From a virus (Duplodnaviria > Caudoviricetes): a DNA stretch of 42,230 bases. Below the pieces are notes generated by a model that was given only the letters and a program-made list of their open reading frames with translations, made no database searches and was not told the origin of the DNA. Made by a program: the position numbers and the translations under genes. The DNA lies in the IMG/VR virus record IMGVR_UViG_3300020045_003820, positions 1 to 42,230 of that record, one strand, 5' to 3'. Positions 122 to 42,166 of the stretch are shown here, piece after piece (position 1 is the stretch's first letter; the number at the start of each line of letters is the position of its first letter).

Positions 122-1822
122 CCGTCGATATTGGGCGGCGCCTTTCCCGGAAACTACCCGCCGTCCGCGAATATTGCTCAGCCAAATACCATTTTCCATA
201 ACATGCGCTGGTGGCTCGTCACCAATCTTCGGCAAATGCTCAGCGAGGCTTACGTTGAACTCGGCCTAGTCCAGACTATTTGCAAGGTGCCAGTAGAAGA
301 CGCACTGCGCGGTGGTATCACGATCAAATCAAAACAACTCGACGAAGATCAGATATCGGAACTTGCGGCGCTTATGGACGAGCAAGGCGATACGGAAACC
401 GCTGGCGAGGCCGCTGAGTGGGATCGGCTTTTCGGTGGCTCGGCCGTCCTGATCTTTACCGAAGATGATCCAAGCGAACCGCTCGTTATCGACGATATTT
501 ACGAAGGCGAGGATATCGAGTTCCGCGCGGTCGATCTTTGGGAACTGTTTTTCGATTTGGTGTCGGTCGGTAGTTACGAAGAGGCGCTATCGGATCCGAA
601 CGTCGAGTATTTCGATTATTACGGTGAGCGCATTCATAGGTCGCGCGTTCTTTTGTTGAAAGGTATCAAGGCACCGTCTTTCGTTCGCCCGCGCCTTCGC
701 GGTTGGGGCGTGTCGGTTGTTGAAACGCTCGTCACCGGCATAAACCAGTATTTGAAAGCCGCGAATCTAACCTATGAAGTGCTCGACGAATTTAAACTCG
801 ATATCTACCGTATCAATAACTTTGCATCGTCGGCATTTGCTCAAGGCGGCCTCGAAAGTTCTTCGGTACGCGACCGCGTGGAAATGGTGAACTTTCTAAA
901 GAACTTCCAAAACGCGATCGTGCTCGATAAAGAAGACGAATACGAAAATAAGCAGCTATCGTTTACGGGGCTTGCCGAGGCCCAAGCCGGTATCAGAATG
1001 CAAATCGCCAGCGATATGCGTATGCCGCTGACGAAACTATTCGGTATGAGCGCGCAGGGCTTTAATTCGGGTGAAGACGATATCGAAGTCTACAACGGAA
1101 TGATCGAGTCGTCGGTTCGCCGCAAACTAAAACGCCCGATACTTCAAATGGTAAAGATCAGGTGTCAGCAATTATGGGGTTTCGTACCCGACGATTTGCA
1201 GATAGCCTTCAAACCCCTACGCGTCATGAGTTCTACCGACGAGGAAACCGTAAAAACCTCACTCTTCAATCGGGCCCTGCAAGCGCGCCAGGCCGGGGAA
1301 CTCGATTCGGACGAGTTTGCAGATATCATGAATCGCGGCGAGCTATTTCCGATCCGGATCAAGTCGCAGAAAGCCGAATTGGGTCTCGACGATAACTTAG
1401 ACGACACCATCGAAGAGGACGATAGACCTGGGAAGGGCAAAGTGAATAAGACACGCGGTAAAGACACCAATACGAATGCGCCAGCGAATAACACGCGACA
1501 CCTACGCGTTATGAACTCGCGAGAAACACGCGAGCGAGCGCCCATTATCGTTTTGCCACCACCCTATACGACGGGTGAACGTATACGCCGGTCGGTATTC
1601 AATTCTACCGCTTTTGACCTCGCAAGCTACGAGGCGGACGGCGGCGATAATTGGATCGATCCGCAACGGGCAAAGCTTTTCGAGGATCCGCTAGGTGTCG
1701 ATCAAACGCTTTGGTCAAAAGCCCGTTTGGGTAGCAAGGACGCATTCAAGGGTGAAGTCCGTTGGCAATATACCGCTTGGTTATATCGTAAAATGGGCGG
1801 CCGTTTTTCAAACTTAAACTAG
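23..1822 (+). CDS. Portal protein (DUF1073-like); true start is probably ATG 42096 across the circular join
   Basis: Follows TerL. Motifs WDRLFGGS, RIHRSR, GWGVSV and MPLTKLFGMSAQGFNSGEDD are typical of this portal family. Confidence 0.9.
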   Translation: MQTPKSPAVIPEVTTDSPMTGVQNSDPGAYGFQPSILGGAFPGNYPPSANIAQPNTIFHNMRWWLVTNLRQMLSEAYVELGLVQTICKVPVEDALRGGITIKSKQLDEDQISELAALMDEQGDTETAGEAAEWDRLFGGSAVLIFTEDDPSEPLVIDDIYEGEDIEFRAVDLWELFFDLVSVGSYEEALSDPNVEYFDYYGERIHRSRVLLLKGIKAPSFVRPRLRGWGVSVVETLVTGINQYLKAANLTYEVLDEFKLDIYRINNFASSAFAQGGLESSSVRDRVEMVNFLKNFQNAIVLDKEDEYENKQLSFTGLAEAQAGIRMQIASDMRMPLTKLFGMSAQGFNSGEDDIEVYNGMIESSVRRKLKRPILQMVKIRCQQLWGFVPDDLQIAFKPLRVMSSTDEETVKTSLFNRALQARQAGELDSDEFADIMNRGELFPIRIKSQKAELGLDDNLDDTIEEDDRPGKGKVNKTRGKDTNTNAPANNTRHLRVMNSRETRERAPIIVLPPPYTTGERIRRSVFNSTAFDLASYEADGGDNWIDPQRAKLFEDPLGVDQTLWSKARLGSKDAFKGEVRWQYTAWLYRKMGGRFSNLN

Positions 1823-1834
1823 GGAGAATGACTT

Positions 1835-2203
1835 ATGCGTTGGATAGTTGGTATGACACTCGGAGAAATGGAAACTCAGGCGATTCGCGATGCGATGAAA
1901 CACCATGACGGTAACAAAACGCAGACCGCCCGTGCGCTCGGTATTTCCGAACGCACGCTTTACGATAAGCTGAAAGCGATCGAACTACTCGATTACAATA
2001 CGCGGCAAGCTATTATCGAGGATACGGAAACGCGCCGGGTTTGGCTCGCTCGTCAGCGCGGCGGCCGCGACACCTATCCGGGTGAGGCCGAAGGTGAGAA
2101 TAGAACCGTCGTGAAGGAAATAGAATCCGGTTTCAAAGAAGACGATCCGCATAATGAAAAATACGAACCAATGCCAGCCGCTAAGAGGAGTCGGGCAAAA
2201 TGA
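1835..2203 (+). CDS. Fis/NtrC-type (HTH_8) DNA-binding protein
   Basis: TLGEMETQAIRDAMKHHDGNKTQTARALGISERTLYDKLK closely follows the Fis-type HTH pattern; GGAG RBS upstream. Confidence 0.85.
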   Translation: MRWIVGMTLGEMETQAIRDAMKHHDGNKTQTARALGISERTLYDKLKAIELLDYNTRQAIIEDTETRRVWLARQRGGRDTYPGEAEGENRTVVKEIESGFKEDDPHNEKYEPMPAAKRSRAK

Positions 2204-2466
2204 AAACTCTGTTAGCTTTCATTTTTCTTCTCAGCGCGTGTCGATCGTCGTCACCAAGCGAGGGTCGATTAATTACTGACCCGGTTATGCAAGCGAAGGC
2301 TATTCGATACCAACAAAAGAAAGTCGATTGCCTAAAAACGTCAATGGGTGATGACGAGTATTTGAAATGCGTTGGTATGAAACGATTGAATGCAAATGAC
2401 CTTTACTGCGAAGGCCCGAATTGTTGGGAAGACTTAAAAAATGATCAGACAGGTCTTCGCGAATGA
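2200..2466 (+). CDS. Small putative lipoprotein
   Basis: MKTLLAFIFLLSAC signal peptide with lipobox; ATGA coupling at both ends. Confidence 0.7.
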   Translation: MKTLLAFIFLLSACRSSSPSEGRLITDPVMQAKAIRYQQKKVDCLKTSMGDDEYLKCVGMKRLNANDLYCEGPNCWEDLKNDQTGLRE

Positions 2467-3461
2467 CCGTCATCGTCCGCAAAGGTGTCAAGTATAAAGT
2501 CCTTCCGGTTATTCCGATAACGCAGGGTTATTGGGACGAGCTTATGGATCGGATCAAGGCCGAGTTTCGTAAAAAGCTCTATGGCCCTATGCTCAAGAAA
2601 ATTAAAAAACCCGTATCGAGCGTCCACAACGCGATTGACGATGCTTTGATCGCTGCAATCAAGTCAGGGCGCGTGGTCTACCATCGCGGGCGTATATCGG
2701 GGAAGTTTTCCGCGCAAATTTCTCGAGAAATTAAACGTATGGGCGGCACTTGGGATAAGAAAACCTCTTCCTTCCGATTGCCTAAGTCCCAAATGCCCGC
2801 CGCCGTCAAGCGAAACGTTGCGTCCGCTAACGAAAAATTTCAAAAACAAACGGCGTCCATATTAAAGGAACTGAATCGGAAGAAACTTCCGGAAGAAATT
2901 GCAAAAGGCATAAAAGCGAAAGATATTTTTGACCTTCAACTCGGAAAAGTTGACAATGACACCGATAAGTCTCTAAAGAATATTACAGTCCCAGCAAAGC
3001 TTACTTATTCCGAACGCGCTAAATTGTCACGAGAGTGGCAAAACAACTTGCGAATTTGGATAAAAGATTTTGCAAAAGAGGAAATTCAGTCTTTGCGGGA
3101 AACCGTTAAGCAGAATGTTTTCGAAGGCGGACGATACGAAGGTCTGATCGAGGGAATACAATCATCCTATGGTGTCACCTCGAGAAAAGCAAGGTTTCTT
3201 GCGCGGCAAGAATCAAATTTATTGCTCGCGAAGTTCAAAGAAACCAAATACCAATCGGCCGGGGTTTACGAATACGTTTGGGAATGCGTTGCGGGATCGC
3301 CCGCCCACCCAGTCCGCCCCTCGCACCTAGCGTTAAAGGGTACGGTTCAAAGATTCGATAAGCCGCCGATCACGACGGGCCCTGGCGAACCGGTTCGAAG
3401 AAATAACCCCGGTGAAGATTATGGTTGTCGCTGCAATGCGAGGCCGATTGTTAGATTTTAA
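2463..3461 (+). CDS. Head morphogenesis / minor head protein (SPP1 gp7 / Mu gpF-like)
   Basis: ARFLARQE, YVW, VRPSH and PGEDYGCRC motifs; position after the portal. Confidence 0.9.
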   Translation: MTVIVRKGVKYKVLPVIPITQGYWDELMDRIKAEFRKKLYGPMLKKIKKPVSSVHNAIDDALIAAIKSGRVVYHRGRISGKFSAQISREIKRMGGTWDKKTSSFRLPKSQMPAAVKRNVASANEKFQKQTASILKELNRKKLPEEIAKGIKAKDIFDLQLGKVDNDTDKSLKNITVPAKLTYSERAKLSREWQNNLRIWIKDFAKEEIQSLRETVKQNVFEGGRYEGLIEGIQSSYGVTSRKARFLARQESNLLLAKFKETKYQSAGVYEYVWECVAGSPAHPVRPSHLALKGTVQRFDKPPITTGPGEPVRRNNPGEDYGCRCNARPIVRF

Positions 3462-3473
3462 AACGGAGTAGGA

Positions 3474-4811
3474 ATGCGATTGCGTCGGAAAAAGAAAAAC
3501 CTTAGAATTTCCAACGCTGATTCGCATCCGTACGGCCTCGTCCTTTACGGCCTTCACATGACCCCAGGTGTCGCCGAATACGCTCTACCCGACGGCAAGT
3601 TCCGTCTATTCATATCCGAAGATACCATCCGAAACATGGGCATGACCGCCGCCGGCCGACCTATGTTTGTTGAGCATAACGAAGACTTCCCCAAAGACCG
3701 CGAATCACTAAAACAACTCGCCGATGGTTGGATCACCGAAAGCTTTTTTAACGAGGCTGACGGCAAGCATTGGTTCAAGTTTGTATTGGTATCGGATAAC
3801 GGCATACGCGCCTACCAGCAAGGTTACGGCCTATCGAATGCCTACGATTTTAAATCAATCGACGATAGAAAGGGCCGCGTAAATGGGATGGACTACGATT
3901 TTGAAGTTCTGGACGGTGAGTATACTCACGTCGCTCTTGAGAAAAATCCACGGTATGAGTCAATAATCTTCACGCCCGAAGAATTCAAATCCTACAACGA
4001 AGAACAACGAGCTGCTATCAGGCGCGTTGCCAATTCTAACGATAAAAAAGGGAAACCAATGAAACGACGCGTACCTGCTAAGAAAGCTCAATCGACCGTG
4101 AAACCGAAATTCTCGTTCTTCAAACGAGAAAAGGTAAAAAACAGTGACGACTTCATGGGCGTCAGCGTTTTGCTACCTGAATCGAACGTGGAAATGACGA
4201 TCGAGGAAGTGATCGCCGTCGCTGATCAAATCCAAGGTGTCACCAATGCCGACGGTAAATACGTTTGCAATGAAGACGACGTCGTAGTCACCGAGGGTGA
4301 AGATGGTGAAGACGAAGAAATCACGGTCGGTGAATTGCTCGATCGCGTCATGGAACTCGAGGCTAAAGTCTCCGAACTCATGGGCGACGAAGACGAGGAA
4401 GAACTTGACGAAGATGATATCGAAAATGAAGATGACGACGAAGACGACGTTGAGAATGAAGACGACGAATTCGAAGAAGACGATACGCCGCCCAAGGCTA
4501 AAGTAAAACCCAAAATGAAAAAAGCGAAAAACAGCGACGACTCACGCCGCGTCACTCGTAAACTCGAAAAACCCGAACCTCGTACACGCTCCAAAAACCA
4601 AAAAACCTCACCCCGTTCAGCGCGTAACCGTGATGACGATCGCCGTAAGTCGCGCAGCGAAATCAGTCAACAAAGAGCAAAAAGCATTCGGAACGCGGAC
4701 GATCGCTACATGAAAGAAGACGATAATTCAAACGTCTACACGATTGACACCATGCAATCGCAAGTCGAGCGCGGCATGAATCGTTATGGTCAGCCGGTGA
4801 ATAAAAAGTAA
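3474..4811 (+). CDS. Prohead protease (DUF2213-like) fused to an acidic scaffold region; possible internal scaffold start at ATG 4059
   Basis: GRPMFVEH, GLSNAY and YTHVALEKNPRY motifs; acidic C-terminal half; in-frame ATG 4059 preceded by AAGGGA. Confidence 0.8.
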   Translation: MRLRRKKKNLRISNADSHPYGLVLYGLHMTPGVAEYALPDGKFRLFISEDTIRNMGMTAAGRPMFVEHNEDFPKDRESLKQLADGWITESFFNEADGKHWFKFVLVSDNGIRAYQQGYGLSNAYDFKSIDDRKGRVNGMDYDFEVLDGEYTHVALEKNPRYESIIFTPEEFKSYNEEQRAAIRRVANSNDKKGKPMKRRVPAKKAQSTVKPKFSFFKREKVKNSDDFMGVSVLLPESNVEMTIEEVIAVADQIQGVTNADGKYVCNEDDVVVTEGEDGEDEEITVGELLDRVMELEAKVSELMGDEDEEELDEDDIENEDDDEDDVENEDDEFEEDDTPPKAKVKPKMKKAKNSDDSRRVTRKLEKPEPRTRSKNQKTSPRSARNRDDDRRKSRSEISQQRAKSIRNADDRYMKEDDNSNVYTIDTMQSQVERGMNRYGQPVNKK

Positions 4812-4870
4812 TTTGCCGTTTTTTGTTTGCGTTCTCGAATCCAACTTTTTCTCTTTAAAGGAAAATTAAA

Positions 4871-5635
4871 ATGACCGCTCCAGTAATAAGCGTCTTAGCA
4901 ACAACTACTACCACTGCAAAACTCGTAGGAACTGCCGCTACAGGTGTCGGCCCGTTCACCTACCAATGGTACCGATCTACAACCGCTGGTTTTACACCAG
5001 GCGGCGGAAACATTCTTGCGGGTAAGACGAGCCTTTCGCTTACCGATACCGGCCTCACGCCGAACGTCGCCTACTATTATAAATTGGTGGCAACGGACAC
5101 TGGCGATTCGAATACGACGCAAACTTCTAACCAAGCGGCCGTTGTATCCGAGCCTCAAGGTCTTACCGAAAACCCTAACCAGTTTGCTCAAAACGCGATT
5201 CTCGGTCAGCCTACTGATCAAGTCCAGCCGAATACTCAAAACATGCAAATCGACGTTTCCGAAACCGCCACTCTTCGCGCCGGTCAGGCCGTGAAGTTTA
5301 TCGGTACCGGAAAAGGCGGCATTCCGAAAGTGGTCGCATGTACAGCGGATACTGATCAAGTTTGCGGTTATATCAATTTTAACCCGCAAAAGAACGTCTA
5401 TGTAGCTGGCGACCGCGTACAGGTGTCAGGCATGCTCAACGTGCTCTTCCTATCCTGCAGCTCGGCCGTAGCGCGCGGCGGTCAGGTTTGCCTTGAGACT
5501 GACGCCTACGGCTCGGTAAAGGCAACAACCGGATCCTCAGGCGCCCGTATCGTCGGATACGCCCTGGACGTTGCGGCGGCCGGTGACACTATTCCGATCT
5601 TCCTACTGACACCATCGTTCCGATTGGATGCGTAA
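4871..5635 (+). CDS. Capsid decoration/cement protein with an N-terminal FN3/Ig-like domain
   Basis: Lies between protease and MCP; YQWYRS...TDTGLTPNVAYYYKLVATD is FN3-like; C-terminal part is beta-rich. Confidence 0.7.
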   Translation: MTAPVISVLATTTTTAKLVGTAATGVGPFTYQWYRSTTAGFTPGGGNILAGKTSLSLTDTGLTPNVAYYYKLVATDTGDSNTTQTSNQAAVVSEPQGLTENPNQFAQNAILGQPTDQVQPNTQNMQIDVSETATLRAGQAVKFIGTGKGGIPKVVACTADTDQVCGYINFNPQKNVYVAGDRVQVSGMLNVLFLSCSSAVARGGQVCLETDAYGSVKATTGSSGARIVGYALDVAAAGDTIPIFLLTPSFRLDA

Positions 5636-5693
5636 TACCCGGACGGTTTTTAGCTAACTCTTTTTGAAACAAAATATTATCGGAGATGTATAT

Positions 5694-6794
5694 ATGACAC
5701 GCCGCCCCCAAGTTCTCGGAGTCGATGGTAAGCCAGTAAAACTCACGCCGGCCGAGCGATATCATGCGCAGCACCTTGAGCGACGAATCGATCAAGAATG
5801 CGCTCATATTTTCATGGCTCGTAACATCAAGAAAGTCTCGAACGCCCTTGGGTATCAAGTCGATATCACAACGCTCACGACGATTTTGAAATCGATCACC
5901 GAGCAAAAATTTTACACCATCCCTTTCGCAACGTATCTTCCCGTTAAAGTCGGTGAAGGCGCATGGTCGAATTTCCTTTTGAACTACCGTTCGTTTGATG
6001 GTGCCTCACCATTCGAAGACGGTATTTTGCAAACAGGTGCCGACAACGCGCGCCTTGCGACGGCAACGTCAGCGGTCGACTCAGTAACAACCGAGGTCTT
6101 CAATTGGGCAAAGGGTATCGGTTGGAATATTATCGAACTTTTCCAAGCCTCGAAATCCGGTAACTGGGATATCGTGACGAGCAAAGAAAAGGCTCGTAAG
6201 CGTAACTGGGATCTAGGTATGCAATCAGTCGCATTCCTCGGTACAAAGGGCAATAGCACGCGTTGCCGCGGTTTGCTTAACCAGCCTTCGGCAAACGTCG
6301 ACACGACGACTATTACCGAGGCGATCAGCGGTATGACGTCAACGGAGCTTAACACCTTCGCTAAAAACATCGTCCAGGCGTATCGTGCTAACTCCGCATA
6401 CACCACTTACCCGACTCACTTCATTATCCCAGAATCAGACTTCAACGGTTTGGGCTCGCAAATGAGCGAAGACTTCCCACTCCGTACGAAAATGTCGATC
6501 CTATTGGAAGTCTTCCAATTGATCACGATGAATCAAAACTTCAAAATCCTTCCGCTTGCGTACGCGGACGCCCCTCAACATATCGGCGTAACAGGTATCG
6601 ACGGTTTGCAAGTTTACACCTTGCTCAACTACGACGAAGATTCATTGCGCATGAATATTCCGGTCGACTACACCAATACCATGCAAAACACGATCGATGG
6701 TTTCAACTTCCAAAGCGCGGGCTACGGTCAGTTTACAGGTGTCACCTTGCTGCGTCCGTTGGAACTTTTGTACTTCACGTACACGGCTTCATAA
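5694..6794 (+). CDS. Major capsid protein (DUF2184 / HK97-fold); start placed at ATG 5694
   Basis: GGAG RBS precedes 5694; size and position; AFLG...GLLNQP motif and C-terminal TGVTLLRP. Confidence 0.88.
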   Translation: MTRRPQVLGVDGKPVKLTPAERYHAQHLERRIDQECAHIFMARNIKKVSNALGYQVDITTLTTILKSITEQKFYTIPFATYLPVKVGEGAWSNFLLNYRSFDGASPFEDGILQTGADNARLATATSAVDSVTTEVFNWAKGIGWNIIELFQASKSGNWDIVTSKEKARKRNWDLGMQSVAFLGTKGNSTRCRGLLNQPSANVDTTTITEAISGMTSTELNTFAKNIVQAYRANSAYTTYPTHFIIPESDFNGLGSQMSEDFPLRTKMSILLEVFQLITMNQNFKILPLAYADAPQHIGVTGIDGLQVYTLLNYDEDSLRMNIPVDYTNTMQNTIDGFNFQSAGYGQFTGVTLLRPLELLYFTYTAS

Positions 6795-6870
6795 CAAATT
6801 CACCGTTTCCCCGGTGGGTAGTGGCCTCTAAGACTTTGCGATGATCTTTTTCTGAATTCGTTTTCAGAGT

Positions 6871-6902
6871 GGGCGGGTGGTTTCTACCACTCGTCCTATT
6901 TA
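6871..6902 (+). terminator. GC-rich hairpin after the MCP gene; possible weak terminator or RNA-stabilising stem
   Basis: GGGCGGGTGG-TTTCTA-CCACTCGTCC stem with G:U pairs, followed by TATTTA. Confidence 0.45.
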
Positions 6903-6918
6903 CCTAGAAGAGAAATGA

Positions 6919-7862: not shown

Positions 7863-8275
7863 GCAACGGCATTCTCATAAACGCCTCGAGCGTTCCACTG
7901 GGTACGATCAATCCAAACCTTCCGCAAATGACGGGCACCTTAAACGATTGGCTTATGCCTATGAAGTTTAACCGCGTGACAAAAACCGTTATTGCGGGTG
8001 AAGTCGTCGAGACGATGATCGAAGTCAATTTCCGTGGTGTCATTCAGCCGCTCAAAAATCGCGACCTCATGCTTAAACCCGAAGGCCAGCGTTCCTGGAC
8101 TTATCAGTGGTTACACGCCGAGCCGGGCCTTGATTTGAATACCGATGACGTCATCGTATTCCAAGGGAAACAAACCCGCGTCGTCGCGCTTAAAGATTAT
8201 CGCCTGTACGGGTATATCGAATATCAGCTTTGCCAGGACTATACCGGTGCCGGGCCCACGGTGGTGACACCATGA
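7859..8275 (+). CDS. Head closure / head-tail joining protein
   Basis: GVIQPL...L.PEGQR motif; gene order. Confidence 0.7.
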   Translation: MSNGILINASSVPLGTINPNLPQMTGTLNDWLMPMKFNRVTKTVIAGEVVETMIEVNFRGVIQPLKNRDLMLKPEGQRSWTYQWLHAEPGLDLNTDDVIVFQGKQTRVVALKDYRLYGYIEYQLCQDYTGAGPTVVTP

Positions 8276-33304: not shown

Positions 33305-35722
33305 ATGAACGATAAAGTTTTCCTAGAGGCTAAGCGCCTATACGATCTAGGTTTTCCCGTGCTTTGGATAAAGAAAAATTCTAAAGCACCGGCCGGCGGT
33401 AGCGGCTGGCAAGAACGCCGTGACGATTGGGCAACGCTCGCGAAGACCTACCAAAAAGGCTTTGGTGTCGGTTGTCAAACGGGCAAGAACGCCGAGCTAC
33501 CATCGGGCCGTTTCCTCGCTATGATCGACCTCGATTTAAAGTCGCGTGATATGACCCACCGAAACGAGGCTAAGGCGGCTTTCATCGCAGCGTTTGGCGA
33601 GGATATCCTGAAAGCCCCTTGCGTTGAATCAGGCAACGGTAGGCGCTACCTACTGACGACACGCGAGCCGGTCGATGCTTTCAAAGGCCCAAAGTCTGAG
33701 GCCCGGGTCAGAGTATTTATGCCGTCCCTCGTAGGCCGAGCCGATAAGGGCAAAGTAGACCCGTCGGTAGAGTCGGGCGAAATTACCCAAGCCGAATATG
33801 ATAAGGGCTGGCGGATCAGACCGGCATGGGAAATCGATATCATGGGCACCGGGCGTCAAGGTGTCCTACCCCCTTCCCTTCACCCTGACACTGATTCTTT
33901 ATATGTATGGAAAAATAAGCTGGCCAGTGAGGACGATCTACCGCGTCTAAAACCCTCCATGCTTAAAGCACTAGGCGCGGTCACGTCTAAGTCAACTGGC
34001 GGTAGCGATAAGGTGCGATCGGACGCGCCAGCATTCGAGCCGGTGCCCTATAACCTCTTTGGAAACGCAAACCTTTCAGACGAAATGATCGAACTTATTC
34101 AGTCGGGTCAAGAACGTGACGAAAACGGTAAGCTATTCCACGTAAATAAAAGCGATAAGCTTTATTCGGCGTGCATGGCTCTTATGCGCGCGGGGTTTTC
34201 CGATATGGAAATCCTGACGATTCTAACTGATAAAGATAATGTATTGGGGGCTACGGCCTACGCGCCAGAGCATAGAAATACGAAGAATCGAAGGAATGCC
34301 GCGCAATGGGTGTATCAATACACGCTACTCAGGGCGAGGAAAGAAGTATCGGGCGATAGGGTTTTTGAAGGGATACCGATCGGCCCGACACCAAAACTTA
34401 ATAAAGAAAAAACTAGGGAACAGCTTAATGAAGTAACAGCACGGCCTTGGAAAAACCAGCTAAAACGTAAAGCTCCGCCCAAAGGTGCCGAGGATTTCGT
34501 CCAAGGCCCTATACTTCCCCTTATCGAGAACATAACTCTCATTATAGAAAACGCCGTTTCGCCACTTGCCCTTAAGCGTAATGAGTTTAAAAACTGCGAT
34601 AACCTTGGTGCGCTCGTGCCTTGGGATGAAAACGCGAGGATAGGGGACGAGGTAAAAGATGACGATATACCGAGAATCCAACGGTGGCTATCGACTACAT
34701 GGGGTTTTGAACCAACAAAAACAACCGTAGAGGCGGCGCTTACCTGTATCGCTACCGACAATAAATTTCATCCGATCAAAGATTACTACGATAATCTTCC
34801 CGCTTGGGACGGCAAGCCCAGGCTCGACACCTTTCTTGCGGATTATTTTGGTTGTGAAGAGGATGCGTCCTATCTATCCGCCCTATTCCGTAAATGGATG
34901 CTCGCCGCGGTCTGGCGGATCTACGAGCCCGGCACGCAGTTTGACCATATGCTCGTCCTTCAAGGTAGAAAGGGACTTCGTAAGTCGACCTTCGGCCGCG
35001 TGCTCTTTGGTGACGAGTATTTCACCGACGATATTCCGGAACTTAAGAAAGGTGCCGACGCTGCGCTCGCACTCGGCGGAAACCACTGCGTAGAATTTTC
35101 GGAACTATCGCACCTTCGTCGTGATCAGATAGATATCGTTAAAGCCTTTATTACCCGAAGAATCGATAAGGTTCGGCCGCCCTACGGAAGACGTTTCGTC
35201 ACTCGTATGCGATCGAATGTTTTGCTCGGTACGGTGAACGACGATAACTTTCTCGTTAAAGATAGCGAAGACGATCGCCGCTTTCAAGTGGTGGTGGCGC
35301 TCAAACTACTTAATATAAAGCGTCTAAAGCGTGAGCGTGATCAGCTTTGGGCCGAGGCGCTGCAGCTCTACCGTTTCTCAGACGAGAAAATTTTCCTATC
35401 GCGTAAGCATGAAGACTATGCGTCGTCGAGACGAAAATCCCACCTCATAGAAAACGAATCCGATGCGATGATTTTTGCGATTTTAGATGCTGTCAAAACT
35501 GACTACTTGAATAACCATTTTGACGCTATACTGAGTGGGCATTTTTCAGTGCATGACCTCTTCCGAGAGGGGTGGCCACTCCAAAAATGGAGAGGTTTAA
35601 GTGGAAGAGAAATAGGTTTCGCCACCGCGTCCTTGAGAAAAATAGGTTTTGAAAACGTCCGAACTAAAAACGCCCGATACTGGAAACTCCCAAAAGAACT
35701 CATCGACGCGATAGTTAAATAG
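33305..35722 (+). CDS. Primase-helicase: N-terminal Prim-Pol (AEP) domain and C-terminal VirE/VapE-like helicase
   Basis: MIDLDLK and VLPPSLHPDT; FHPIKDY, WDGKPRL, Walker A QGRKGLRKST, RPPYGR, GTVN and RDQLWAEA. Confidence 0.9.
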   Translation: MNDKVFLEAKRLYDLGFPVLWIKKNSKAPAGGSGWQERRDDWATLAKTYQKGFGVGCQTGKNAELPSGRFLAMIDLDLKSRDMTHRNEAKAAFIAAFGEDILKAPCVESGNGRRYLLTTREPVDAFKGPKSEARVRVFMPSLVGRADKGKVDPSVESGEITQAEYDKGWRIRPAWEIDIMGTGRQGVLPPSLHPDTDSLYVWKNKLASEDDLPRLKPSMLKALGAVTSKSTGGSDKVRSDAPAFEPVPYNLFGNANLSDEMIELIQSGQERDENGKLFHVNKSDKLYSACMALMRAGFSDMEILTILTDKDNVLGATAYAPEHRNTKNRRNAAQWVYQYTLLRARKEVSGDRVFEGIPIGPTPKLNKEKTREQLNEVTARPWKNQLKRKAPPKGAEDFVQGPILPLIENITLIIENAVSPLALKRNEFKNCDNLGALVPWDENARIGDEVKDDDIPRIQRWLSTTWGFEPTKTTVEAALTCIATDNKFHPIKDYYDNLPAWDGKPRLDTFLADYFGCEEDASYLSALFRKWMLAAVWRIYEPGTQFDHMLVLQGRKGLRKSTFGRVLFGDEYFTDDIPELKKGADAALALGGNHCVEFSELSHLRRDQIDIVKAFITRRIDKVRPPYGRRFVTRMRSNVLLGTVNDDNFLVKDSEDDRRFQVVVALKLLNIKRLKRERDQLWAEALQLYRFSDEKIFLSRKHEDYASSRRKSHLIENESDAMIFAILDAVKTDYLNNHFDAILSGHFSVHDLFREGWPLQKWRGLSGREIGFATASLRKIGFENVRTKNARYWKLPKELIDAIVK

Positions 35723-35731
35723 GTTTTAAAA

Positions 35732-36212
35732 CCCAAAAGGTGACGGGGTGGTGACGGGGTCAGAGGTTATTTTGAGGTTTTCGGGTAGGTTTCTCAAAAG
35801 GGTTTTTCAGTCTATAAAAATAGATATAAAAACCCTTTCCTCGAAAACCTCGGGTGACGGGGTGGTGACGGGGTCTGATTTCCCGGTAACTGGCACCATA
35901 TAAGGGTTTGAGGGTTATTGGTGACGGTGACGGGGTCTTTCTTTGAGAGACTATAGAATTTTTAATAGGGTAAAATAACCCCCCGACACCATACCCCGAA
36001 ACCTAGTTTCTATAGAAATCCTGTAGGAAGTCTTCTAGGCGGACGGTGTCACCCCCGTCACCAATAACCCTCAAACCCTTGGTGTTCTAAGGTTATAGCG
36101 GGTGACGGGGTACCCTTAGACCCCGTCACCTTTTGGGCCCTACCCCGTCACCGGCCTTGGTGCTCTAGGCGTTGCGGACTTTAGGTACCCCGTCACCCGT
36201 AAAAGCACCAAG
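35732..36212. repeat. Putative replication origin: ten GGTGACGGGG iterons and nested inverted repeats
   Basis: + copies at 35739, 35750, 35853, 35864, 35926, 36101; - copies at 36053, 36121, 36143, 36188; non-coding, directly after the primase-helicase gene. Confidence 0.8.
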
Positions 36213-36308
36213 TTTTTATGACACGACAACTAAGTTTTTTCTGCATAGATTGGTGTCGATAAAAAAGAGCCAAAAAATGATCAAAAATCGTGTTGAATTT
36301 TCAAAGGA

Positions 36309-36731
36309 TTGAAGATGCGAATTACGAGTAAGAAAAAAACAAAACGTGAGCGTGACGATGATAGCGACGAAAAAAAATTGAAGAGACGACGGTCGCGCGC
36401 CGCTCGAGCGAAGGGTCATACTTTCGAAAGAGAATGCGCGATCATGCTCCGTGAGTTTTACCCCGACGCACGCCGCCTTTTGGAAAACCATCGAGACGAC
36501 GCAAGAGGTGTCGACTTACTCCATACTGGCCGGTTACGAATTCAATGCAAGCGTCGAATTGACTACTCGCCCGTTTCCACCATCGCCGAGATCCAATGCG
36601 ACGAGCTGATAGCCGGGGAAATACCCCTGTTAGTCACGTCAGGCGACGGTAAGCGCCCGATGGTGGTATTGAGCCTTTCAGACTTCATCGCGTTCTTGCG
36701 CGATCTACAGGCCGCTGGTACGCTTCCGTAA
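36309..36731 (+). CDS. Holliday junction resolvase-like PD-(D/E)XK nuclease (start uncertain)
   Basis: KGHTFERECA...GVDL...IQCK pattern. Confidence 0.7.
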   Translation: MKMRITSKKKTKRERDDDSDEKKLKRRRSRAARAKGHTFERECAIMLREFYPDARRLLENHRDDARGVDLLHTGRLRIQCKRRIDYSPVSTIAEIQCDELIAGEIPLLVTSGDGKRPMVVLSLSDFIAFLRDLQAAGTLP

Positions 36732-36744
36732 ATTTTGACTTAAC

Positions 36745-36753
36745 TGCTATAAT
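36745..36753 (+). promoter_or_regulatory. Extended -10 element (TGCTATAAT) before the ParB-like gene
   Basis: Perfect TGnTATAAT 12 nt before the ATG; would give a very short leader. Confidence 0.4.
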
Positions 36754-36765
36754 GAGGTACGTCAT

Positions 36766-37440
36766 ATGGTGGCGCATGTAAAAGAGCTGGCCCCTAGCCC
36801 TACGAACCCGCGAGTCGTGACTGAGGAAAAGCTTAAACAACTCGGAAAGGCTATCGATGCTTTCGGTGATTTATCCGGTATCGTTTTCAATCGAACTACT
36901 AAAACCATTGTTAGCGGTCATCAGCGTGCTAAGGTCTTTGGGCCCGATGCTAAAATCACGATCGAGAAGAATTACCAAAAACCGTCAAGAACGGGAACAG
37001 TTGCGGAAGGTTTTGTCCTGGTATCAGGGGAACGCTACAAGTATCGTGAAGTATCATGGGATAGCGTTACAGAAAAAGCAGCGCGCCTGGCGGCGAATAG
37101 AAATGCTGGCGATTGGAATAACTCTTTGCTCGCTAACGACCTTCGCGATATCGCAGATATTGGTTTAGATTCTGATCTTTCCATGTTCTCGAAAAAAGAA
37201 CGCGATAAGATCTTTGCCGGCCTTGATAAAAAGCCAAAAACTGAAAAATCACGCTCAGCATCCGGTGACGTGAAAGAAATCAAATTGTCCTTTACCGCAG
37301 AAAATTATGAAACCTTTTTAGAAAACATTGAATATTTCCAAAAAATATTGGAAGTTGATTCTATAACCGACACCATTATTGAGGTTTTGCAAAGCGCCCG
37401 GGCGGCCCAGGAAGGTGACGTGAGTGACGAAGAAGAGTAG
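36766..37440 (+). CDS. ParB/Srx-like N-terminal domain protein
   Basis: LAPSPTNPR...FGDLSGIVFN...IVSGHQR and ANRNAGDW motifs. Confidence 0.8.
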   Translation: MVAHVKELAPSPTNPRVVTEEKLKQLGKAIDAFGDLSGIVFNRTTKTIVSGHQRAKVFGPDAKITIEKNYQKPSRTGTVAEGFVLVSGERYKYREVSWDSVTEKAARLAANRNAGDWNNSLLANDLRDIADIGLDSDLSMFSKKERDKIFAGLDKKPKTEKSRSASGDVKEIKLSFTAENYETFLENIEYFQKILEVDSITDTIIEVLQSARAAQEGDVSDEEE

Positions 37441-38662
37441 TTTAAAACTAAAGCCCTCGTTCAAAGACGATATCGCCAGTAAAAAGCGTGAGCGTTTTGA
37501 GCTAAGGCACGGTGATAGTTTAAAGGTTTTGAAAGATATTAATCCTAACACCTTCGATTCTATCGTAACCGATCCGCCCTACGGTCTTTCCTTTATGGGA
37601 AACCGTTGGGACTATGACGTCCCAAGCGTTGAGCTTTGGCAGGAATGCCTTCGCGTGCTTAAGCCAGGCGGTTATCTACTGGCGTTTAGCGGGACGCGCA
37701 CATATCATCGAATGGTTGTTGCGATTGAAGACGCAGGGTTTGAGATTTGCGATCAAATGCAATGGTTATACGGTAGGGGTTTTCCAAAATCGCACGATAT
37801 TAGCAAGGCTATTGATAAACAATTTGGTGTCGAGCGTGAGGTTATTGGTACTCGTGAAGTTGTCGATATGCGTGGCGGAAATTATAACGCACTAGAAATA
37901 AAAAAGATGCAGATGAAAGTTTTAGGCGACCCTGTAACCGCCGCCGCCGCCGCTAAGTGGGACGGTTGGGGAACTGCTTTAAAACCTGCAAATGAGCCTA
38001 TATGCGTGGCTCAAAAGCCTATCTCTGAAGACACGATAGCAAAGAATGTTTTGATGCATGGAACGGGTGGGCTGAATATTGATGCGAGTCGAATTGGGGA
38101 TAGTGGCGGCGTAGGTAATGTAATTGGGCAAGGTGAATTGCAATCGGATGGCTGGGGGACAAGAAAACCTATTTTTGATGATTCAACTAGAGGCCGCTTC
38201 CCAGCCAACATTTTGTTCGACGAATACGCGGCTGGGGTTTTGGATGAGCAGAGTGGGATTTTAAAGTCAGGGGCAAACCCAACTAGACGATCCTCTGATA
38301 AATTTAGAAGCGCTTACGGAGAATTTAAAGGTGAGGAGGAGTGTATCCCAGCCCGCGGTGCCGACTCAGGCGGCGCCTCACGCTTTTTTTACGTCTCTAA
38401 ACCTTCGGCCGATGAAAAGCATAGTGGTCTCGATGAAAGTAACTTTCATCCAACCGTGAAACCTATAAACCTTATGCATTATCTTATACGGCTCGTAACG
38501 AGGCCAGGCGGAACGGTGTTAGACCCTTTTATGGGTAGCGGCTCGACGGGTATTGCCGCTATCAAAAACGATTTTAAGTTCTTTGGTATTGATCAGGATA
38601 AAGAGTTCTTCGAGTTAGCGAAGGCACGCATCCAAGGTGTCTATAGGATTAAAAGGAAATAG
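37424..38662 (+). CDS. DNA methyltransferase (N6A/N4C, beta class)
   Basis: VTDPPY, GFPKS, GRFPAN, HPTVKP and VLDPFMGSGSTG motifs. Confidence 0.93.
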   Translation: MTKKSSLKLKPSFKDDIASKKRERFELRHGDSLKVLKDINPNTFDSIVTDPPYGLSFMGNRWDYDVPSVELWQECLRVLKPGGYLLAFSGTRTYHRMVVAIEDAGFEICDQMQWLYGRGFPKSHDISKAIDKQFGVEREVIGTREVVDMRGGNYNALEIKKMQMKVLGDPVTAAAAAKWDGWGTALKPANEPICVAQKPISEDTIAKNVLMHGTGGLNIDASRIGDSGGVGNVIGQGELQSDGWGTRKPIFDDSTRGRFPANILFDEYAAGVLDEQSGILKSGANPTRRSSDKFRSAYGEFKGEEECIPARGADSGGASRFFYVSKPSADEKHSGLDESNFHPTVKPINLMHYLIRLVTRPGGTVLDPFMGSGSTGIAAIKNDFKFFGIDQDKEFFELAKARIQGVYRIKRK

Positions 38663-38665
38663 CTA

Positions 38666-38779
38666 ATGCCAGAAATCCCATCGACTTTCGTCAGCGGTTT
38701 AGTCTACGGTTTCGGTTTTTGGATCGCCGCCGTGGTAGTTATTTTAATCTTCAAAAGCGTTGGTATCACTGCTTTTTGA
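38666..38779 (+). CDS. 37-aa hydrophobic membrane peptide (not in the ORF track)
   Basis: AAGGA RBS; MPEIPSTFVSGLVYGFGFWIAAVVVILIFKSVGITAF. Confidence 0.6.
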   Translation: MPEIPSTFVSGLVYGFGFWIAAVVVILIFKSVGITAF

Positions 38780-38830
38780 GTTTCCCAAAAATTCAATGAG
38801 TTTATCAGAGATTGGAGGTTTAATAGGTTT

Positions 38831-39499
38831 ATGGGCAGACCAAAAGGATCGAAAGATTCATCACCAAGAAAAAGTCCAGGCACTCGAAAAATGACGAATA
38901 AACAAAAACGCGATCGTGCAAAACTAAAAGCCGAGCGCGCGGAGTTAGATGCGCGAAAAGAAAAGGTGTCTGCTAAAAAGCCTATAAAACAAGCGGAAAA
39001 AACAACCCTCGGTGATCGTGCTAAGGGTTTGTTTGATGGTGAAACTGAAAAACCATTGAGCGGTAAACAGAAAAGTTTGCTCAATCTAAAAAAATTCAAT
39101 AAAGGCATAAGTCCTAATCCTGGCGGCGTTCCAAAATCACCGGAAGCGATCGAAAACAGGGAAACTCGTAAGCGCTTTAAGACCCTTACGAATAAGGACT
39201 TTAAAGAGCTTACGAATCTTTTGATCGATGGTGACGTTGAAGAGCTAAAAGTCGTCGCGAACGAAAGATTGAACGGCGTAAAGTCTTCCGGAAAATACTC
39301 GGCGTTGCAAGTTATGACGGCGACCGTTGCGCTCAATATCATGAGCAAGGGATCAGCTCACGATTGGGATATATTTCTGAATCGATTGATTGGCAAAGTG
39401 AAAGAGACTGTAAAAATAGAGGATTCAGCGCATGCAAGCTTACGTGGTGTCGTGCATGTAATGATCCCTTCCAACGGACGCGAGGCAAAACCAGCATGA
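38831..39499 (+). CDS. Probable terminase small subunit
   Basis: NLKKFNKGISPNPGGVPK and FLNRLIGKVKE motifs; upstream of TerL. Confidence 0.65.
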   Translation: MGRPKGSKDSSPRKSPGTRKMTNKQKRDRAKLKAERAELDARKEKVSAKKPIKQAEKTTLGDRAKGLFDGETEKPLSGKQKSLLNLKKFNKGISPNPGGVPKSPEAIENRETRKRFKTLTNKDFKELTNLLIDGDVEELKVVANERLNGVKSSGKYSALQVMTATVALNIMSKGSAHDWDIFLNRLIGKVKETVKIEDSAHASLRGVVHVMIPSNGREAKPA

Positions 39500-39849
39500 A
39501 ATACTTGGTTTTAACTGATAACCATAACGAAAAAGTACGAATCAATTTTGATTTGGTTCGCGAGTATCACCGTGAATCAGATAGTAGGCTTACAACGGTG
39601 ATAATCGTCACGCCGTTTACCTCAAATCAAGTTTACGTCCAGGAAACGCCCGAAGATATCGATTGGATGCTTTCCAAAGAGGGGAACGTCGTCTCGATAG
39701 GCGTGATCGCAAAACCGTCGACACCTGGCGGGGGCGGCGGATCCGGTGCGACGGCCGAGAACCATGAAAACCTTACTGATACGCTCGATGAAATCGATAA
39801 GGTGTCAGCTAGAAATTACGAAGAGACTTCAAACCCCTTGCACTTCTAA
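39496..39849 (+). CDS. FlbD/SwrD-like small beta protein (start ATG 39496)
   Basis: ATGA coupling; LVLTD...VRINFDLV...TTVII...VYVQETPEDI pattern. Confidence 0.55.
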   Translation: MKYLVLTDNHNEKVRINFDLVREYHRESDSRLTTVIIVTPFTSNQVYVQETPEDIDWMLSKEGNVVSIGVIAKPSTPGGGGGSGATAENHENLTDTLDEIDKVSARNYEETSNPLHF

Positions 39850-39860
39850 GGATTGACACC

Positions 39861-40187
39861 ATGTTTATCGACACCATCGACCTCAATTGTAATCGTCCTA
39901 TCCGCCTTAACCTCACGATGAAATCAAAGATTCTCTATATCGAATCTTTCGGCCCAATGCTTTCAAAGATCATTTACGAAAACAAAGAATCGCTGAAAGT
40001 GCCTATCGGGGCTGAGCGCCTCGAGGAACTGTTTAACGAATACGATCCGCAATCGTCGGTATCGTTTGCGTCCGATAAGTTCTCGCCGCGCAATATACTC
40101 GATAGCCAATCGATCAGCCCGCGGTCTACGAAACCAATCGAAGAGCATCCGAATCGTAAACATAAAAAACATAACGAAGAGTCGTGA
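39861..40187 (+). CDS. Hypothetical protein, possibly a distant paralogue of the preceding gene
   Basis: AAGGA RBS; similar beta pattern (IRLN...ILYIE...SKII...LKV). Confidence 0.55.
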   Translation: MFIDTIDLNCNRPIRLNLTMKSKILYIESFGPMLSKIIYENKESLKVPIGAERLEELFNEYDPQSSVSFASDKFSPRNILDSQSISPRSTKPIEEHPNRKHKKHNEES

Positions 40188-40190
40188 GCA

Positions 40191-40667
40191 ATGGGTATCG
40201 AAGAAAACCCGAATGACCTCGTCACCGCAATAAAAATTCTAGCTGAGGAAGTCGAGTACAAACGTAAAAAACTCGACTTCGATGCGTTGCTCGCAGTACG
40301 CAAAGCCGCGGCCGAAGTAAGCAGGTGCTTTGCTGAGTTTAACGACGGGAATATGAATCAAGTGGCATTCGGTGCGATAGGTGAGGCAATCGATTACCTT
40401 GACAACGCGCTTTACCATACGCGCATGATCGAGCCGAAACTAACCGAGTATTTTACTGGCGATGAAATTGACGAGTACATGCAAATCGATTGGGCAAAAC
40501 CGGGTGAGGATAGATCGATGAATATAGCAGTCGTTTATTGCGAGGCGTGTAAGCACAACCACCAAATAGAATTGCCCGAAGGCGCTTTGCAGCTCGACGA
40601 TGAATCAGTCATGGAAGGGATCAAACGCTTTCACGATGCAAACAACGTTAAGGTGTCACCTACGTGA
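40191..40667 (+). CDS. Hypothetical protein with a CxxC motif
   Basis: 158-aa ORF coupled to TerL by GTGA overlap. Confidence 0.6.
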   Translation: MGIEENPNDLVTAIKILAEEVEYKRKKLDFDALLAVRKAAAEVSRCFAEFNDGNMNQVAFGAIGEAIDYLDNALYHTRMIEPKLTEYFTGDEIDEYMQIDWAKPGEDRSMNIAVVYCEACKHNHQIELPEGALQLDDESVMEGIKRFHDANNVKVSPT

Positions 40668-42166
40668 GTAATCCGGCTGAGGAAATATTCGAAGAACCGA
40701 TTATAACCATAGCGCCTCAGCCCGGGCCGCAAACTCAATTTTTAGAAACCGTTGCTGATATTGCAATCTTCGGCGGCGCGGCCGGTGGTGGGAAAACGTT
40801 TTCACTTTTGCTCGAACCACTTCGTCATGTAAATAACCCAAAGTTTTCCGGCCTTATCTTTCGTAGATCATCGGTACAAATCCGAAACATCGGTGGTCTA
40901 TGGACTGAATCGACTCAACTCTACCCGATTCTTAACGGCGAACCGCGTACTGCGATGCTCGACTGGACGTTTCCGAATCCGATCGATCCGGAACTCGGCG
41001 GCATGATCATGAAATTCGCTTACCTCGAGCGTGACGCGGACGTTTATAACTTCCAAGGCGCGCAAACACCCTACATCGCATTCGATGAGCTGACCCACTT
41101 TTCCGAGTTTCAATTCTTCTACATGCTATCGCGCCTTCGATCGACTTCGGGCGTTCCCGGTTACGTGCGCGCGACGACTAACCCCGACGCTGATTCTTGG
41201 ATTCGTCAGTTTATCGATTGGTGGATTGACGAAGACGGTTACGCAATACCTGAAAGAAGTGGTGTCATCCGTTGGTTTATTCGGATGAATGACGAAACGC
41301 TTTGGGGTGATTCGGCCGAAGAATTGAAAATGCTCTACGGATCAAAGCAAGTTCCAAAGTCGTTTACTTTCATCGCTGCAAAGTTGAGCGATAACAAAAT
41401 ACTCATGGAAAAAGATCCGAGTTATTTCGGTTCGCTCATGACTCTTCCGCAAATCGAACGTGAGCGATTGTTAGGCGACGAAATAAAAGGCGGTAATTGG
41501 AACGTACGCCTTGCGTCGGGCATGCTATTTAAGCGCGACTGGTTTACCTTGCTCGATACCATTCCTGAGGGGTGGGTAGAATGCGTTCGCTTTTGGGATC
41601 GCGCAGCTACCAAGCCAAACCCCAAAAACACTGACCCCGACTGGACACGCGGGGTAAAGCTTTATCGCTACAGGGACGGCAATTACGTTGTCGGGGACGT
41701 CAAGTCAATTAGGGACACTCCCGGTCAAGTTGAGCTATTTATGAAAGAAGTGGCGGAAATGGACGGCCGCCGCGTGAAAATCGTTTGCCAGCAAGACCCA
41801 GGATCGGCCGGTGTTTCCGAGGCCGAGTATATGGTTAGACGCCTTGGTGCGTTTGAGGTTCGCGTTAAGATATTGAGCAAAGACAAGGTCACGCGCGCAA
41901 AGCCCGTCTCAGCTCAATCAGAATTCGGGTTTATCAAGGTATTGCGGGCACCGTGGAACCAGCCCTTCTTTTCCGAATTGATAAGCTTTCCTGACGGCAA
42001 ACACGATGATATCGTCGATGCACTATCAGGTGCCTATAACGAAATGCCAAACACGGTGTCGACGCTCGACGCTTACCGGACGCAAGGAAAAAACTATGGG
42101 AAAAAAGAAACGCGGCCCAATCATAATACCAGTGCAAACGCCGAAGTCCCCGGCGGTTATTCCTGA
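40664..42166 (+). CDS. terL: Terminase large subunit
   Basis: PQPGPQ, Walker A GGAAGGGKT, Walker B FDELTHF, RATTNP, WDRAA and FPDGKHDDIVDA. Confidence 0.95.
   Translation: MSNPAEEIFEEPIITIAPQPGPQTQFLETVADIAIFGGAAGGGKTFSLLLEPLRHVNNPKFSGLIFRRSSVQIRNIGGLWTESTQLYPILNGEPRTAMLDWTFPNPIDPELGGMIMKFAYLERDADVYNFQGAQTPYIAFDELTHFSEFQFFYMLSRLRSTSGVPGYVRATTNPDADSWIRQFIDWWIDEDGYAIPERSGVIRWFIRMNDETLWGDSAEELKMLYGSKQVPKSFTFIAAKLSDNKILMEKDPSYFGSLMTLPQIERERLLGDEIKGGNWNVRLASGMLFKRDWFTLLDTIPEGWVECVRFWDRAATKPNPKNTDPDWTRGVKLYRYRDGNYVVGDVKSIRDTPGQVELFMKEVAEMDGRRVKIVCQQDPGSAGVSEAEYMVRRLGAFEVRVKILSKDKVTRAKPVSAQSEFGFIKVLRAPWNQPFFSELISFPDGKHDDIVDALSGAYNEMPNTVSTLDAYRTQGKNYGKKETRPNHNTSANAEVPGGYS

Follow-up and report, generated by a model that had tools for sequence, protein, structure and literature searches.

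Site-specific priming by archaeo-eukaryotic primases (AEPs) is known from a few purified enzymes rather than from the layout of their sites in genomes. The primases of the plasmid pRN1 and of phage NrS-1 recognise GTG or GTGG on the template and start the primer 5' of it (PMC13469122, PMC8718748). In the pRN1 enzyme, D308-R311 bind the nucleotide and S310 touches the final G of GTG; the enzyme also makes contact with bases 3' of GTG, and the primer starts immediately 5' of it; the same paper gives primases a preference for pyrimidine templates at the start (PMC13469122). The sites of the NrS-1 primase-polymerase are 5'-TTTGGTTA-3' and 5'-GTG(G/A)-3' (PMC8718748), and T7 gp4 primes at 5'-(G/T)2GTC-3', with strong sites every 1-6 kb along the genome (PMC12839067; see also PMC5862659 and bioRxiv 10.64898/2026.10.17.759575). 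Here we examine a stretch of 42,230 nucleotides from a virus of the Caudoviricetes (positions 1 to 42,230 of IMG/VR record IMGVR_UViG_3300020045_003820; hereafter the window) and the hexamer GGTGTC that recurs throughout it. From sequence and structural models we predict, with a probability of about 0.78, that at these words in the template the phage's own primase-helicase, of the Prim-Pol/helix-bundle/VapE type, starts primers, because a related word follows this primase through distant phages and flips strand at the predicted replication origin.

Like pRN1 ORF904 (PDB 3M1M, 6GT7), the window protein joins an AEP domain, a helix bundle and a helicase in one chain. ORF904 is the best structural match of both N-terminal domains of the window protein and shares a D-R-S motif with its family; moreover, the pRN1 site GTG is contained in the window word, and in the family words the core is directly preceded by TT. 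pRN1 differs in being an archaeal plasmid with a three-base site, and the available text of PMC13469122 describes no genome-wide spaced array; the window differs in its word of 5-6 bases, its VapE-like helicase and its separate Pol A. Phage NrS-1 likewise encodes an AEP that carries a helix bundle and begins primers 5' of a GTG-type word (PMC8718748), and its GTGG is contained in TTGTGG, the word of a divergent clade of window relatives; the NrS-1 Pfam domains, however, have no match to the window protein. T7 shares dispersed priming sites with the window, and GTGTC fits the T7 pattern letter for letter (PMC12839067), but the T7 primase is of the TOPRIM/zinc-finger type, and no TOPRIM or zinc-binding primase was found among the 53 window open reading frames (ORFs) scanned. 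A T7 gp4-type site was rejected on this ground and because the relatives keep GGTG and drop TC; GTGTC without a preceding G occurs 6 times on the + strand and 16 times on the - strand of the window.

The Rep and PriRep origins of Staphylococcus aureus pathogenicity islands (SaPIs) and phage-inducible chromosomal islands (PICIs) have an iteron array behind the gene, as in the window. In SaPI origins, 6-12 short iterons follow immediately after the gene and face opposite ways on the two sides of an AT-rich centre, and the available part of the paper describes neither priming-site polarity nor a dispersed array (PMC9371898). In the mainly open-access literature, supplements aside, we found no described case of a genome-wide, evenly spaced primase-site array in phages. 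The origin of P4 and the single-strand initiation (ssi) sites ssiA and ssiB of RSF1010 have oppositely placed priming sites at the origin, as the origin candidate of the window would; ssi signals are long hairpins used once. Chi sites of RecBCD/AddAB are short, asymmetric, G-rich words that overlie genes, and the window word differs from them in that GGTGTC is unenriched in candidate hosts and two Bdellovibrio phages in culture lack the array.

GGTGTC in the window and its close relatives

A preliminary description of the window reported GGTGTCA as a strand-biased, evenly spaced cis signal overlaid on genes. On recounting, all 36 copies on the + strand and 16 on the - strand were found exactly where it had placed them, and GGTGTCG, which it called frequent, has 17 + and 18 - copies. 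The core unit is the hexamer GGTGTC, preceded by A or T in 84 of the 98 sites (A 46, T 38, C 13, G 1) and followed by A or G in 87.

559..42060, + strand: 60 GGTGTC sites, starting at 559, 1161, 1694, 2484, 3171, 3567, 4236, 4943, 5422, 6738, 7144, 8036, 8646, 9604, 9745, 11507, 12592, 13957, 14206, 15150, 15653, 16199, 16356, 16797, 17777, 18371, 18759, 19505, 20201, 20843, 21128, 21861, 22186, 22630, 23358, 23771, 24158, 25058, 26005, 26647, 27238, 28088, 28555, 29292, 30311, 31771, 32817, 33464, 33860, 36045, 36252, 36507, 37826, 38636, 38965, 39446, 39801, 40652, 41261 and 42055
1403..39875, - strand: 38 GGTGTC sites (GACACC on +), at 1403, 1463, 1497, 2069, 2958, 4746, 5608, 8266, 8464, 9135, 10516, 10582, 11058, 12250, 14359, 14376, 14958, 15186, 16274, 17430, 18401, 21147, 23005, 23433, 24649, 25306, 26376, 27270, 28618, 30351, 33053, 34387, 34826, 35985, 37369, 39720, 39855 and 39870

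The enrichment persists when codons are preserved: within-gene synonymous shuffles (n = 200) give 22.4 ± 3.7 copies on the + strand (maximum 32) and 15.4 ± 2.9 on the - strand (maximum 23), and GGTGTC is the top hexamer against them (z 12.5). The uniform expectation of about 2.6 GGTGTCA per strand used earlier overstated the excess, since the same shuffles give 10.3 + and 7.2 -. A null that also reproduces the words the genome avoids, fitted to 112 avoided 5-mer and 141 avoided 6-mer entries, raises GGTGTC to 27.6 ± 3.2 + and 17.8 ± 3.2 - (25 samples). GGTGTC is thus present at 2-2.7 times the codon-preserving nulls, with both strands enriched. As had been claimed, the sites fall in different reading frames, encoding Gly-Val (31), x-Val-Ser (15), Asp-Thr (22), x-Thr-Pro (16) and others (6), with 8 intergenic; Gly-Val is written GGT GTC in 29 of 64 cases in plus-strand genes and 2 of 16 in minus-strand genes.

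Spacing on the + strand is indeed under-dispersed, with a mean gap of 704, a shortest gap of 141 and a coefficient of variation (CV) of 0.54, lower than in any of 20,000 random placements. On the - strand the mean gap is 1111 (CV 0.80, p 0.10). GGTGTC is the most regular of the 533 hexamers with at least 20 copies. The strand bias fared otherwise: 60:38 and 36:16 depart from 50:50 (p 0.033 and 0.008) but fit the codon-preserving null (p 0.36 and 0.12), and strand bias was therefore rejected as a signal. Persistence of the + orientation through the minus-strand arm (14 versus 8 copies) is likewise matched by a null that is itself biased to + (6.4 versus 3.9), and fold enrichment over the codon null is similar on the two strands. 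What is special to the + strand of the window is evenness, whereas enrichment is common to both. No replichore switch is seen across the window (+, 30 left and 30 right; -, 17 left and 21 right), and in 10 relatives the replichore trend is weak beyond 2 kb.

Three close relatives (L001, L097 and L098), with proteins mostly 76-94% identical to those of the window and a four-fold codon identity of 0.56, allowed conservation to be measured at synonymous positions. In codons aligned with them lie 42 GGTGTC sites, 31 of which are kept; where the amino acids are unchanged, 30 of 35 are kept, versus 44-46% for any hexamer (p 1.3e-6). Sixteen sites of the close relatives are missing from the window, and L097 has 17 + and 12 - copies that are even on both strands (CV 0.57 and 0.53), which indicates that sites turn over with spacing retained. 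On the evidence of the codon null, the avoidance null and synonymous-site conservation, GGTGTC words are selected DNA signals evenly spread through the genome, as first proposed.

The primase-helicase and the word of its family

The likely reader is a predicted 805-residue protein encoded as follows.

33305..35722, + strand: primase-helicase of 805 residues (Prim-Pol PF09250, helix bundle and VapE-like ATPase PF05272), likely reader
33332..33934, + strand: AEP catalytic domain, residues about 10-210; D75, D77 and H193 invariant or nearly so in 43 homologues
34022..34372, + strand: helix-bundle domain, residues 240-356; best structural matches the pRN1 helix-bundle domain (HBD), the RepB' HBD and PriX
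34106-34144, + strand: lineage-specific beta-hairpin insertion, residues about 268-280; the bundle also carries a two-residue insertion
34802..35443, + strand: VapE-like P-loop helicase domain

The AEP domain matches PF09250 at E 8e-9. A model of residues 1-360 (pLDDT 90) has the pRN1 primase 3M1M as its top Foldseek match (E 1.9e-5), followed by RepB' and NrS-1. When the helical domain alone (residues 240-356, pLDDT 92) was searched exhaustively with VIA against 48,161 chains, the top four matches were all primase ancillary domains: the pRN1 HBD (Z 6.3, root-mean-square deviation 3.7, 95 aligned residues), the free HBD (6.1), RepB' (6.0) and PriX (5.3). Against BFVD the same domain gave two significant viral matches, of 745 and 789 residues, one of them named VapE. 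The D-R-S motif of the family aligns with the pRN1 D-R-S, a GTG core is present in all three words (GGTGTC, TGGTG and TTGTGG) and the two template positions 5' of the core are TT in the family words, whereas position -1 in the window is A more often than T. The preliminary description had offered a primase start site as one candidate, citing the GTGTC of T7. The primase is supported by relatives, origin polarity and structural matches; the resemblance to T7 GTGTC is probably incidental, because the protein that probably reads the word is an AEP of the pRN1 type whose helix bundle would recognise a GGTG core.

Primase homologues were gathered with alignments A1 and A2, and the remaining sequence of 14 contigs was added to the family sample; all family figures below hold among the matches listed. 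The 35 relatives are 27-39% identical to the window protein in the N-terminal region and have GC contents of 0.37-0.58. GGTGTC is mostly unenriched in these distant relatives, at 0-2.4 times expectation (4.1 in L272). TGGTG was spotted in the first loci, and because it had been picked by looking, all 5-mers were then ranked. TGGTG and CACCA are first and second of 920 5-mers for evenness over the relatives (combined z -7.2 and -4.2; 33 of the 35 had enough copies of TGGTG), versus rank 646 of 739 for TGGTG in 46 control loci. Among family sequences 15 kb or longer, TGGTG is significantly even in 12 of 21, versus 1 of 55 controls (Fisher p 1e-7), and the median TTGGTG excess is 2.2 in the family versus 1.2 in controls; such p-values overstate independence, because family members share ancestry. 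The nearest case is G011, to which the window primase is sister, on a long branch, in a quick version of the family tree: TTGGTG occurs 44 and 37 times there, even on both strands, and TTGGTGT 24 and 14 times. To judge from these sequences, the family word is (T)TGGTG, and its GGTG core co-occurs with the clade of window-type primases.

Eleven relatives are near-complete. All have Prim-Pol, Pol A, exonuclease and SNF2 genes and 9 carry an even array, and homologues of other window genes are found in few of them (portal 3, capsid 1, Fis-like 1, ParB-like 1, methylase 1). Bdellovibrio phage phi1422 has head, Fis-like and ParB-like homologues at 41-48% but a TOPRIM primase, and over 45,000 of its 45,354 bp there is no array (TGGTG CV 1.38 and 1.29); Bdellovibrio phage phi1402 also has none. 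AMA1, AchV4 and RcCWillis have a Prim-Pol with a PriCT-2 domain instead of the window-type N-terminus, and no TGGTG array was found in them (AchV4 and RcCWillis over 50 kb each). Nor was one found in RpY1, BIP-1, AMA1 and ct8d5349, which have Pol A, single-stranded DNA-binding protein (SSB) and exonuclease homologues (24-33%) without the window-type primase N-terminus. Among cultured phages none matched 80% of the window primase or of its helix bundle, and single-protein scans of viral contigs returned no primase relatives and one relative each via the terminase and Pol A.

In four relatives with a rewritten helix bundle (L026, L084, L120 and L121), TTGTGG is present at 5.5, 6.8, 5.4 and 2.7 times expectation and TTGGTG is lost, at 0.7, 1.2, 0.6 and 0.0 times in the same order; G013, the nearest long-contig relative of this divergent clade in the tree, retains TTGGTG. 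The window bundle has N-K-S in place of D-R-S, the beta-hairpin insertion and the two-residue insertion, and our guess is that these features read the extra TC. L271 also has the two-residue insertion, but its GGTGTC excess is 2.1-fold and uneven. In the lineage of the window, specificity would have shifted from (T)TGGTG to W-GGTGTC-R alongside the helix-bundle insertions.

Polarity at a predicted replication origin

Directly behind the primase-helicase gene lies a candidate origin with a SaPI/P4-type iteron layout, in which seven forward and four inverted repeats surround AT-rich DNA.

35737..36199, no strand assigned: predicted replication origin, with GGTGACGG repeats and AT-rich stretches
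35739, 35750, 35853, 35864, 35920, 35926 and 36101, + strand: seven forward GGTGACGG repeats
36055, 36123, 36145 and 36190, - strand: four inverted GGTGACGG repeats
35985..35990, - strand: GGTGTC that would prime rightward; kept in L098
36045..36050, + strand: GGTGTC that would prime leftward; overlaps an inverted iteron-like half-site; lost in L098

Where the orientation of the repeats changes, the - site at 35,985 lies to the left of the + site at 36,045. The candidate also contains a perfect 26-bp inverted repeat (35902-35927 and 36055-36080), and many relatives have similar repeat arrays behind the gene, made of different repeat words.

Polarity was scored in the 32 relatives whose bundle is canonical and whose flanking sequence is long enough, the centre being the AT-richest window of each. 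Within 300 bp right of this centre TGGTG is on the + strand in 22 and on the - strand in 3; within 300 bp left it is + in 11 and - in 23. The nearest site is + on the right in 27 of 32 and - on the left in 25 of 32. For polarity around the origin candidate TGGTG is first of 1,024 words in the 32 relatives; in 66 control loci with VapE only it has rank 995. Those control loci (L025-L096) have polar words of their own, TCGCC, GCTCC and AGAAC, which may reflect either coding effects or the start words of primases of other types.

In the mechanism that we propose, the primase-helicase would load at the iteron array behind its own gene and open the DNA there. Once the template is exposed, its 5'-GGTG(TC)-3' words would be read by the helix bundle, and primer synthesis by the AEP domain would begin opposite the bases immediately 5' of the word, as it does in pRN1 at GTG. 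Copied from the GTG-bearing strand, primers that start at the sites near the origin would extend across it. The first site met by each outgoing fork would become the leading strand of the opposite fork, which would explain why minus-strand sites lie left and plus-strand sites right of the origin; yeast origins have the same geometry, primers that cross the origin becoming the leading strands of opposite forks (PMC6344338). Later sites would give rise to Okazaki fragments 0.3-2 kb long, to be extended by the phage Pol A. Spacing would be evened because selection acts against long site-free gaps, and sites would occur on both strands everywhere because forks cross the whole genome both ways, in rolling-circle or recombination-dependent replication. 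We put at slightly better than even odds the broader proposition that a large, uncultured phage group writes out a full priming map, with a 5-6 base word read by the bundle, Okazaki-length spacing, a flip at the origin, and word (TTGGTG, TTGTGG, WGGTGTCR) and domain co-evolving.

Several observations weigh against the assignment to the primase. The structural scores of the helical domain are middling (Z 5.3-6.3), and Foldseek (PDB), Pfam and hidden Markov model searches with that domain alone gave no significant match; the D-R-S alignment has a conditional E of 0.0012 but an independent E of 210; and position -1 in the window is A in 46 of 98 sites. At the origin, the polarity scores of other words go up to 37 in the 66 control loci, to be set beside 31 for TGGTG in the 32 relatives. 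In the window itself the automatic centre is 35,807, with both origin sites to its right, so that the sites at 35,985 and 36,045 straddle the iteron inversion point alone, and the + site is absent from L098. The four TTGTGG relatives have + sites on the right, but their nearest left site is also +. The TTGTGG switch amounts to a single event (L026 and L120 belong to one clade, and the tree does not include L084 and L121) on contigs of just 2.7-12 kb, and a change of host may have accompanied it. Nine of the 21 family sequences are not significantly even (G001, G005, G017, G007c258, L271, L100, L105, L117 and L192), several named controls carry an integrase, a lifestyle confound, and the genome of NrS-1, whose primase is site-specific and which was taken as a positive control, shows no enriched or even array. 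Finally, co-occurrence cannot single out the primase, because Pol A, SSB, exonuclease and SNF2 travel along with it.

Gene context, other candidate readers and meaning

The window consists of a complete circular myophage genome (42,109 bp) and a terminal repeat of 121 bp. Domain scans of the 53 ORFs place a contractile-tail virion arm on the + strand and Pol A, SSB, exonuclease and SNF2 genes in a minus-strand arm, after which come the 805-residue Prim-Pol/VapE protein, RusA, a ParB-like protein, an N6/N4 methylase and TerL.

23228..25300, - strand: family A DNA polymerase, which would extend primers
26020..26814, - strand: Enc34-type single-stranded DNA-binding protein
26820..28109, - strand: DUF2800 PD-(D/E)XK exonuclease, rival reader
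29750..31381, - strand: SNF2-like helicase, rival reader

Two genes flank the polymerase gene on the - strand (22284-23228 and 25297-25968); they encode a SASA-family acetylesterase and an FkbM methyltransferase, which may serve to modify surfaces or DNA. The methylase gene behind the ParB-like gene (window 37424-38662; L001 1229-2077) is swapped between close relatives with the N-terminal stretch alone retained, and L271 carries a copy of the window version, 80% identical. The head genes match those of phi1422 at 41-48% in the same order, and of the six full-length primase homologues that top the matches listed, three are in bins named Bdellovibrionota and three in other phyla. Because of these head genes and bins, Bdellovibrionota is a plausible candidate host group.

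The reading that survives best after priming, although we hold it unlikely, is that the word acts as a Chi-like signal of the host, at which RecBCD/AddAB would be stopped or tempered on phage ends left by restriction cuts or rolling-circle replication, with even spacing limiting the loss. Chi polarity about an origin is the same as that of a lagging-strand priming site, heavy avoidance of words on both strands is typical of restriction pressure, and family members may share a host group. Three further points also count against the primase: TGGTG is part of E. coli Chi; it is at 1.4-1.6 times expectation in G006, G073 and G143; and in G073 (100 kb) TGGTGG is the top leading-strand hexamer (54 versus 15), with the E. 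coli Chi octamer at 8 versus 1. Set against this, GGTGTC is at 0.8-1.2 times expectation in 300 kb of oriented candidate-host sequence, which may not be that of the phage's host, and across 121 genomes from the G006 phylum the density of GGTGTCA is no higher than about 0.13 per kb, as against 1.24 in the phage (densities read by hand; a run of plus-strand matches in G073 and G143 looked like an artefact of listing order and was disregarded). This lack of enrichment in 121 candidate-phylum genomes, an indirect test, weakens the Chi-like signal that the preliminary description had put forward. Moreover, phi1422 and phi1402 lack the array, an argument that assumes a Bdellovibrionota host, and a Chi signal leaves the sites within 300 bp either side of the origin unexplained.

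The same primase-helicase is involved in a second alternative, which we think very unlikely: GGTGTC would be a dispersed weak iteron, a duplex site for loading or reloading the C-terminal origin-binding part of the primase-helicase rather than for priming, a contrast that binding of the C-terminal domain to GGTGACGGGG versus GGTGTC duplex would bring out. The iteron core GGTGAC is one base from GGTGTC, two iteron positions are GGTGTC in L098, and the + site at 36045 overlaps an inverted half-site. Outside the origin, however, GGTGAC is unenriched (17 + and 18 -) and GGTGACGG has one copy on each strand, and the iteron words of the relatives vary, mostly without TGGTG, whereas the dispersed word stays TGGTG.

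Less probable again is a self-signal for the DUF2800 exonuclease or the SNF2 helicase, such as a recombination stop site, for which we know of no precedent. Both genes accompany the primase in 11 of 11 near-complete relatives, but the word switches along with the helix bundle, and RpY1, BIP-1, AMA1 and ct8d5349 have their Pol A/SSB/exonuclease homologues with no TGGTG array. We give little credence to the word being a by-product of restriction-site avoidance that squeezes Gly-Val, Asp-Thr, Val-Ser and Thr-Pro into few codon pairs. On both strands there is strong avoidance of TGTG, GACAT, GACAG and GGWCC, among others, and modelling this raises the + expectation from 22 to 28, yet 60 and 38 copies are still 10 and 6 standard deviations above the constrained null, that null has a CV of 0.96 ± 0.17 with a minimum of 0.69 (25 samples), and neither the family word nor the origin polarity is explained; as a main cause it was rejected by the constrained null, long gapped avoided sites lying outside the model. 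A site for the Fis-like or ParB-like protein, the DNA methylase or the packaging machinery, part of which had been suggested earlier, is next to excluded by gene swaps: genes for all of them are present in the window, 8 of the 98 sites lie between genes in a genome with 4.5% non-coding DNA, and L271, with its 80% identical methylase, has GGTGTC at 2.1 times expectation. In L001, however, the methylase is a different one (39% identity over 159 residues, as against 78-94% for its neighbours) and the word is still at 10 times expectation; most array-bearing relatives lack homologues, and there is no array in phi1422 despite its Fis-like, ParB-like and head homologues.

Some words stand apart from the array. 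The window avoids asymmetric 4-6-mers heavily on both strands (TGTG at 0.17 and GGAG at 0.22 of the codon null; also GGWCC, GACAT, GACAG, GAAGC, GGCAG, GAGAG and GAGAT, with 57 hexamers absent). This avoidance is common to the close relatives, in which that of GGWCC is much weaker, and not to G011 or phi1422; it suggests a host with many restriction systems. A second word, (G)GTAAAG(AC), is found at 3.5-7.4 times expectation on both strands in G014 (109 and 99 copies), L100, L194 and L277, more weakly in L099, L102 and L029; it is mostly uneven as a hexamer and separate from the TGGTG array. L391 (MW202898), with a different Prim-Pol, has 13 copies of CGTCTCCG on one strand, spaced fairly evenly (CV 0.50), and none on the other, and the top word of G003 is CGATCGC/GCGATC (48 and 48 copies), presumably HIP1-like.

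If GGTGTC and its relatives are indeed start sites of the predicted primase-helicase, both primase specificity and replication origins would be readable from sequence alone. Selection on fragment length would leave a measurably even word in coding DNA, and its polarity would mark the origin. The helix bundle would be a swappable specificity module, for which the three natural pairs of word and domain would provide a direct test, and the family would be a supply of site-specific primases with sites of 5-6 bases.

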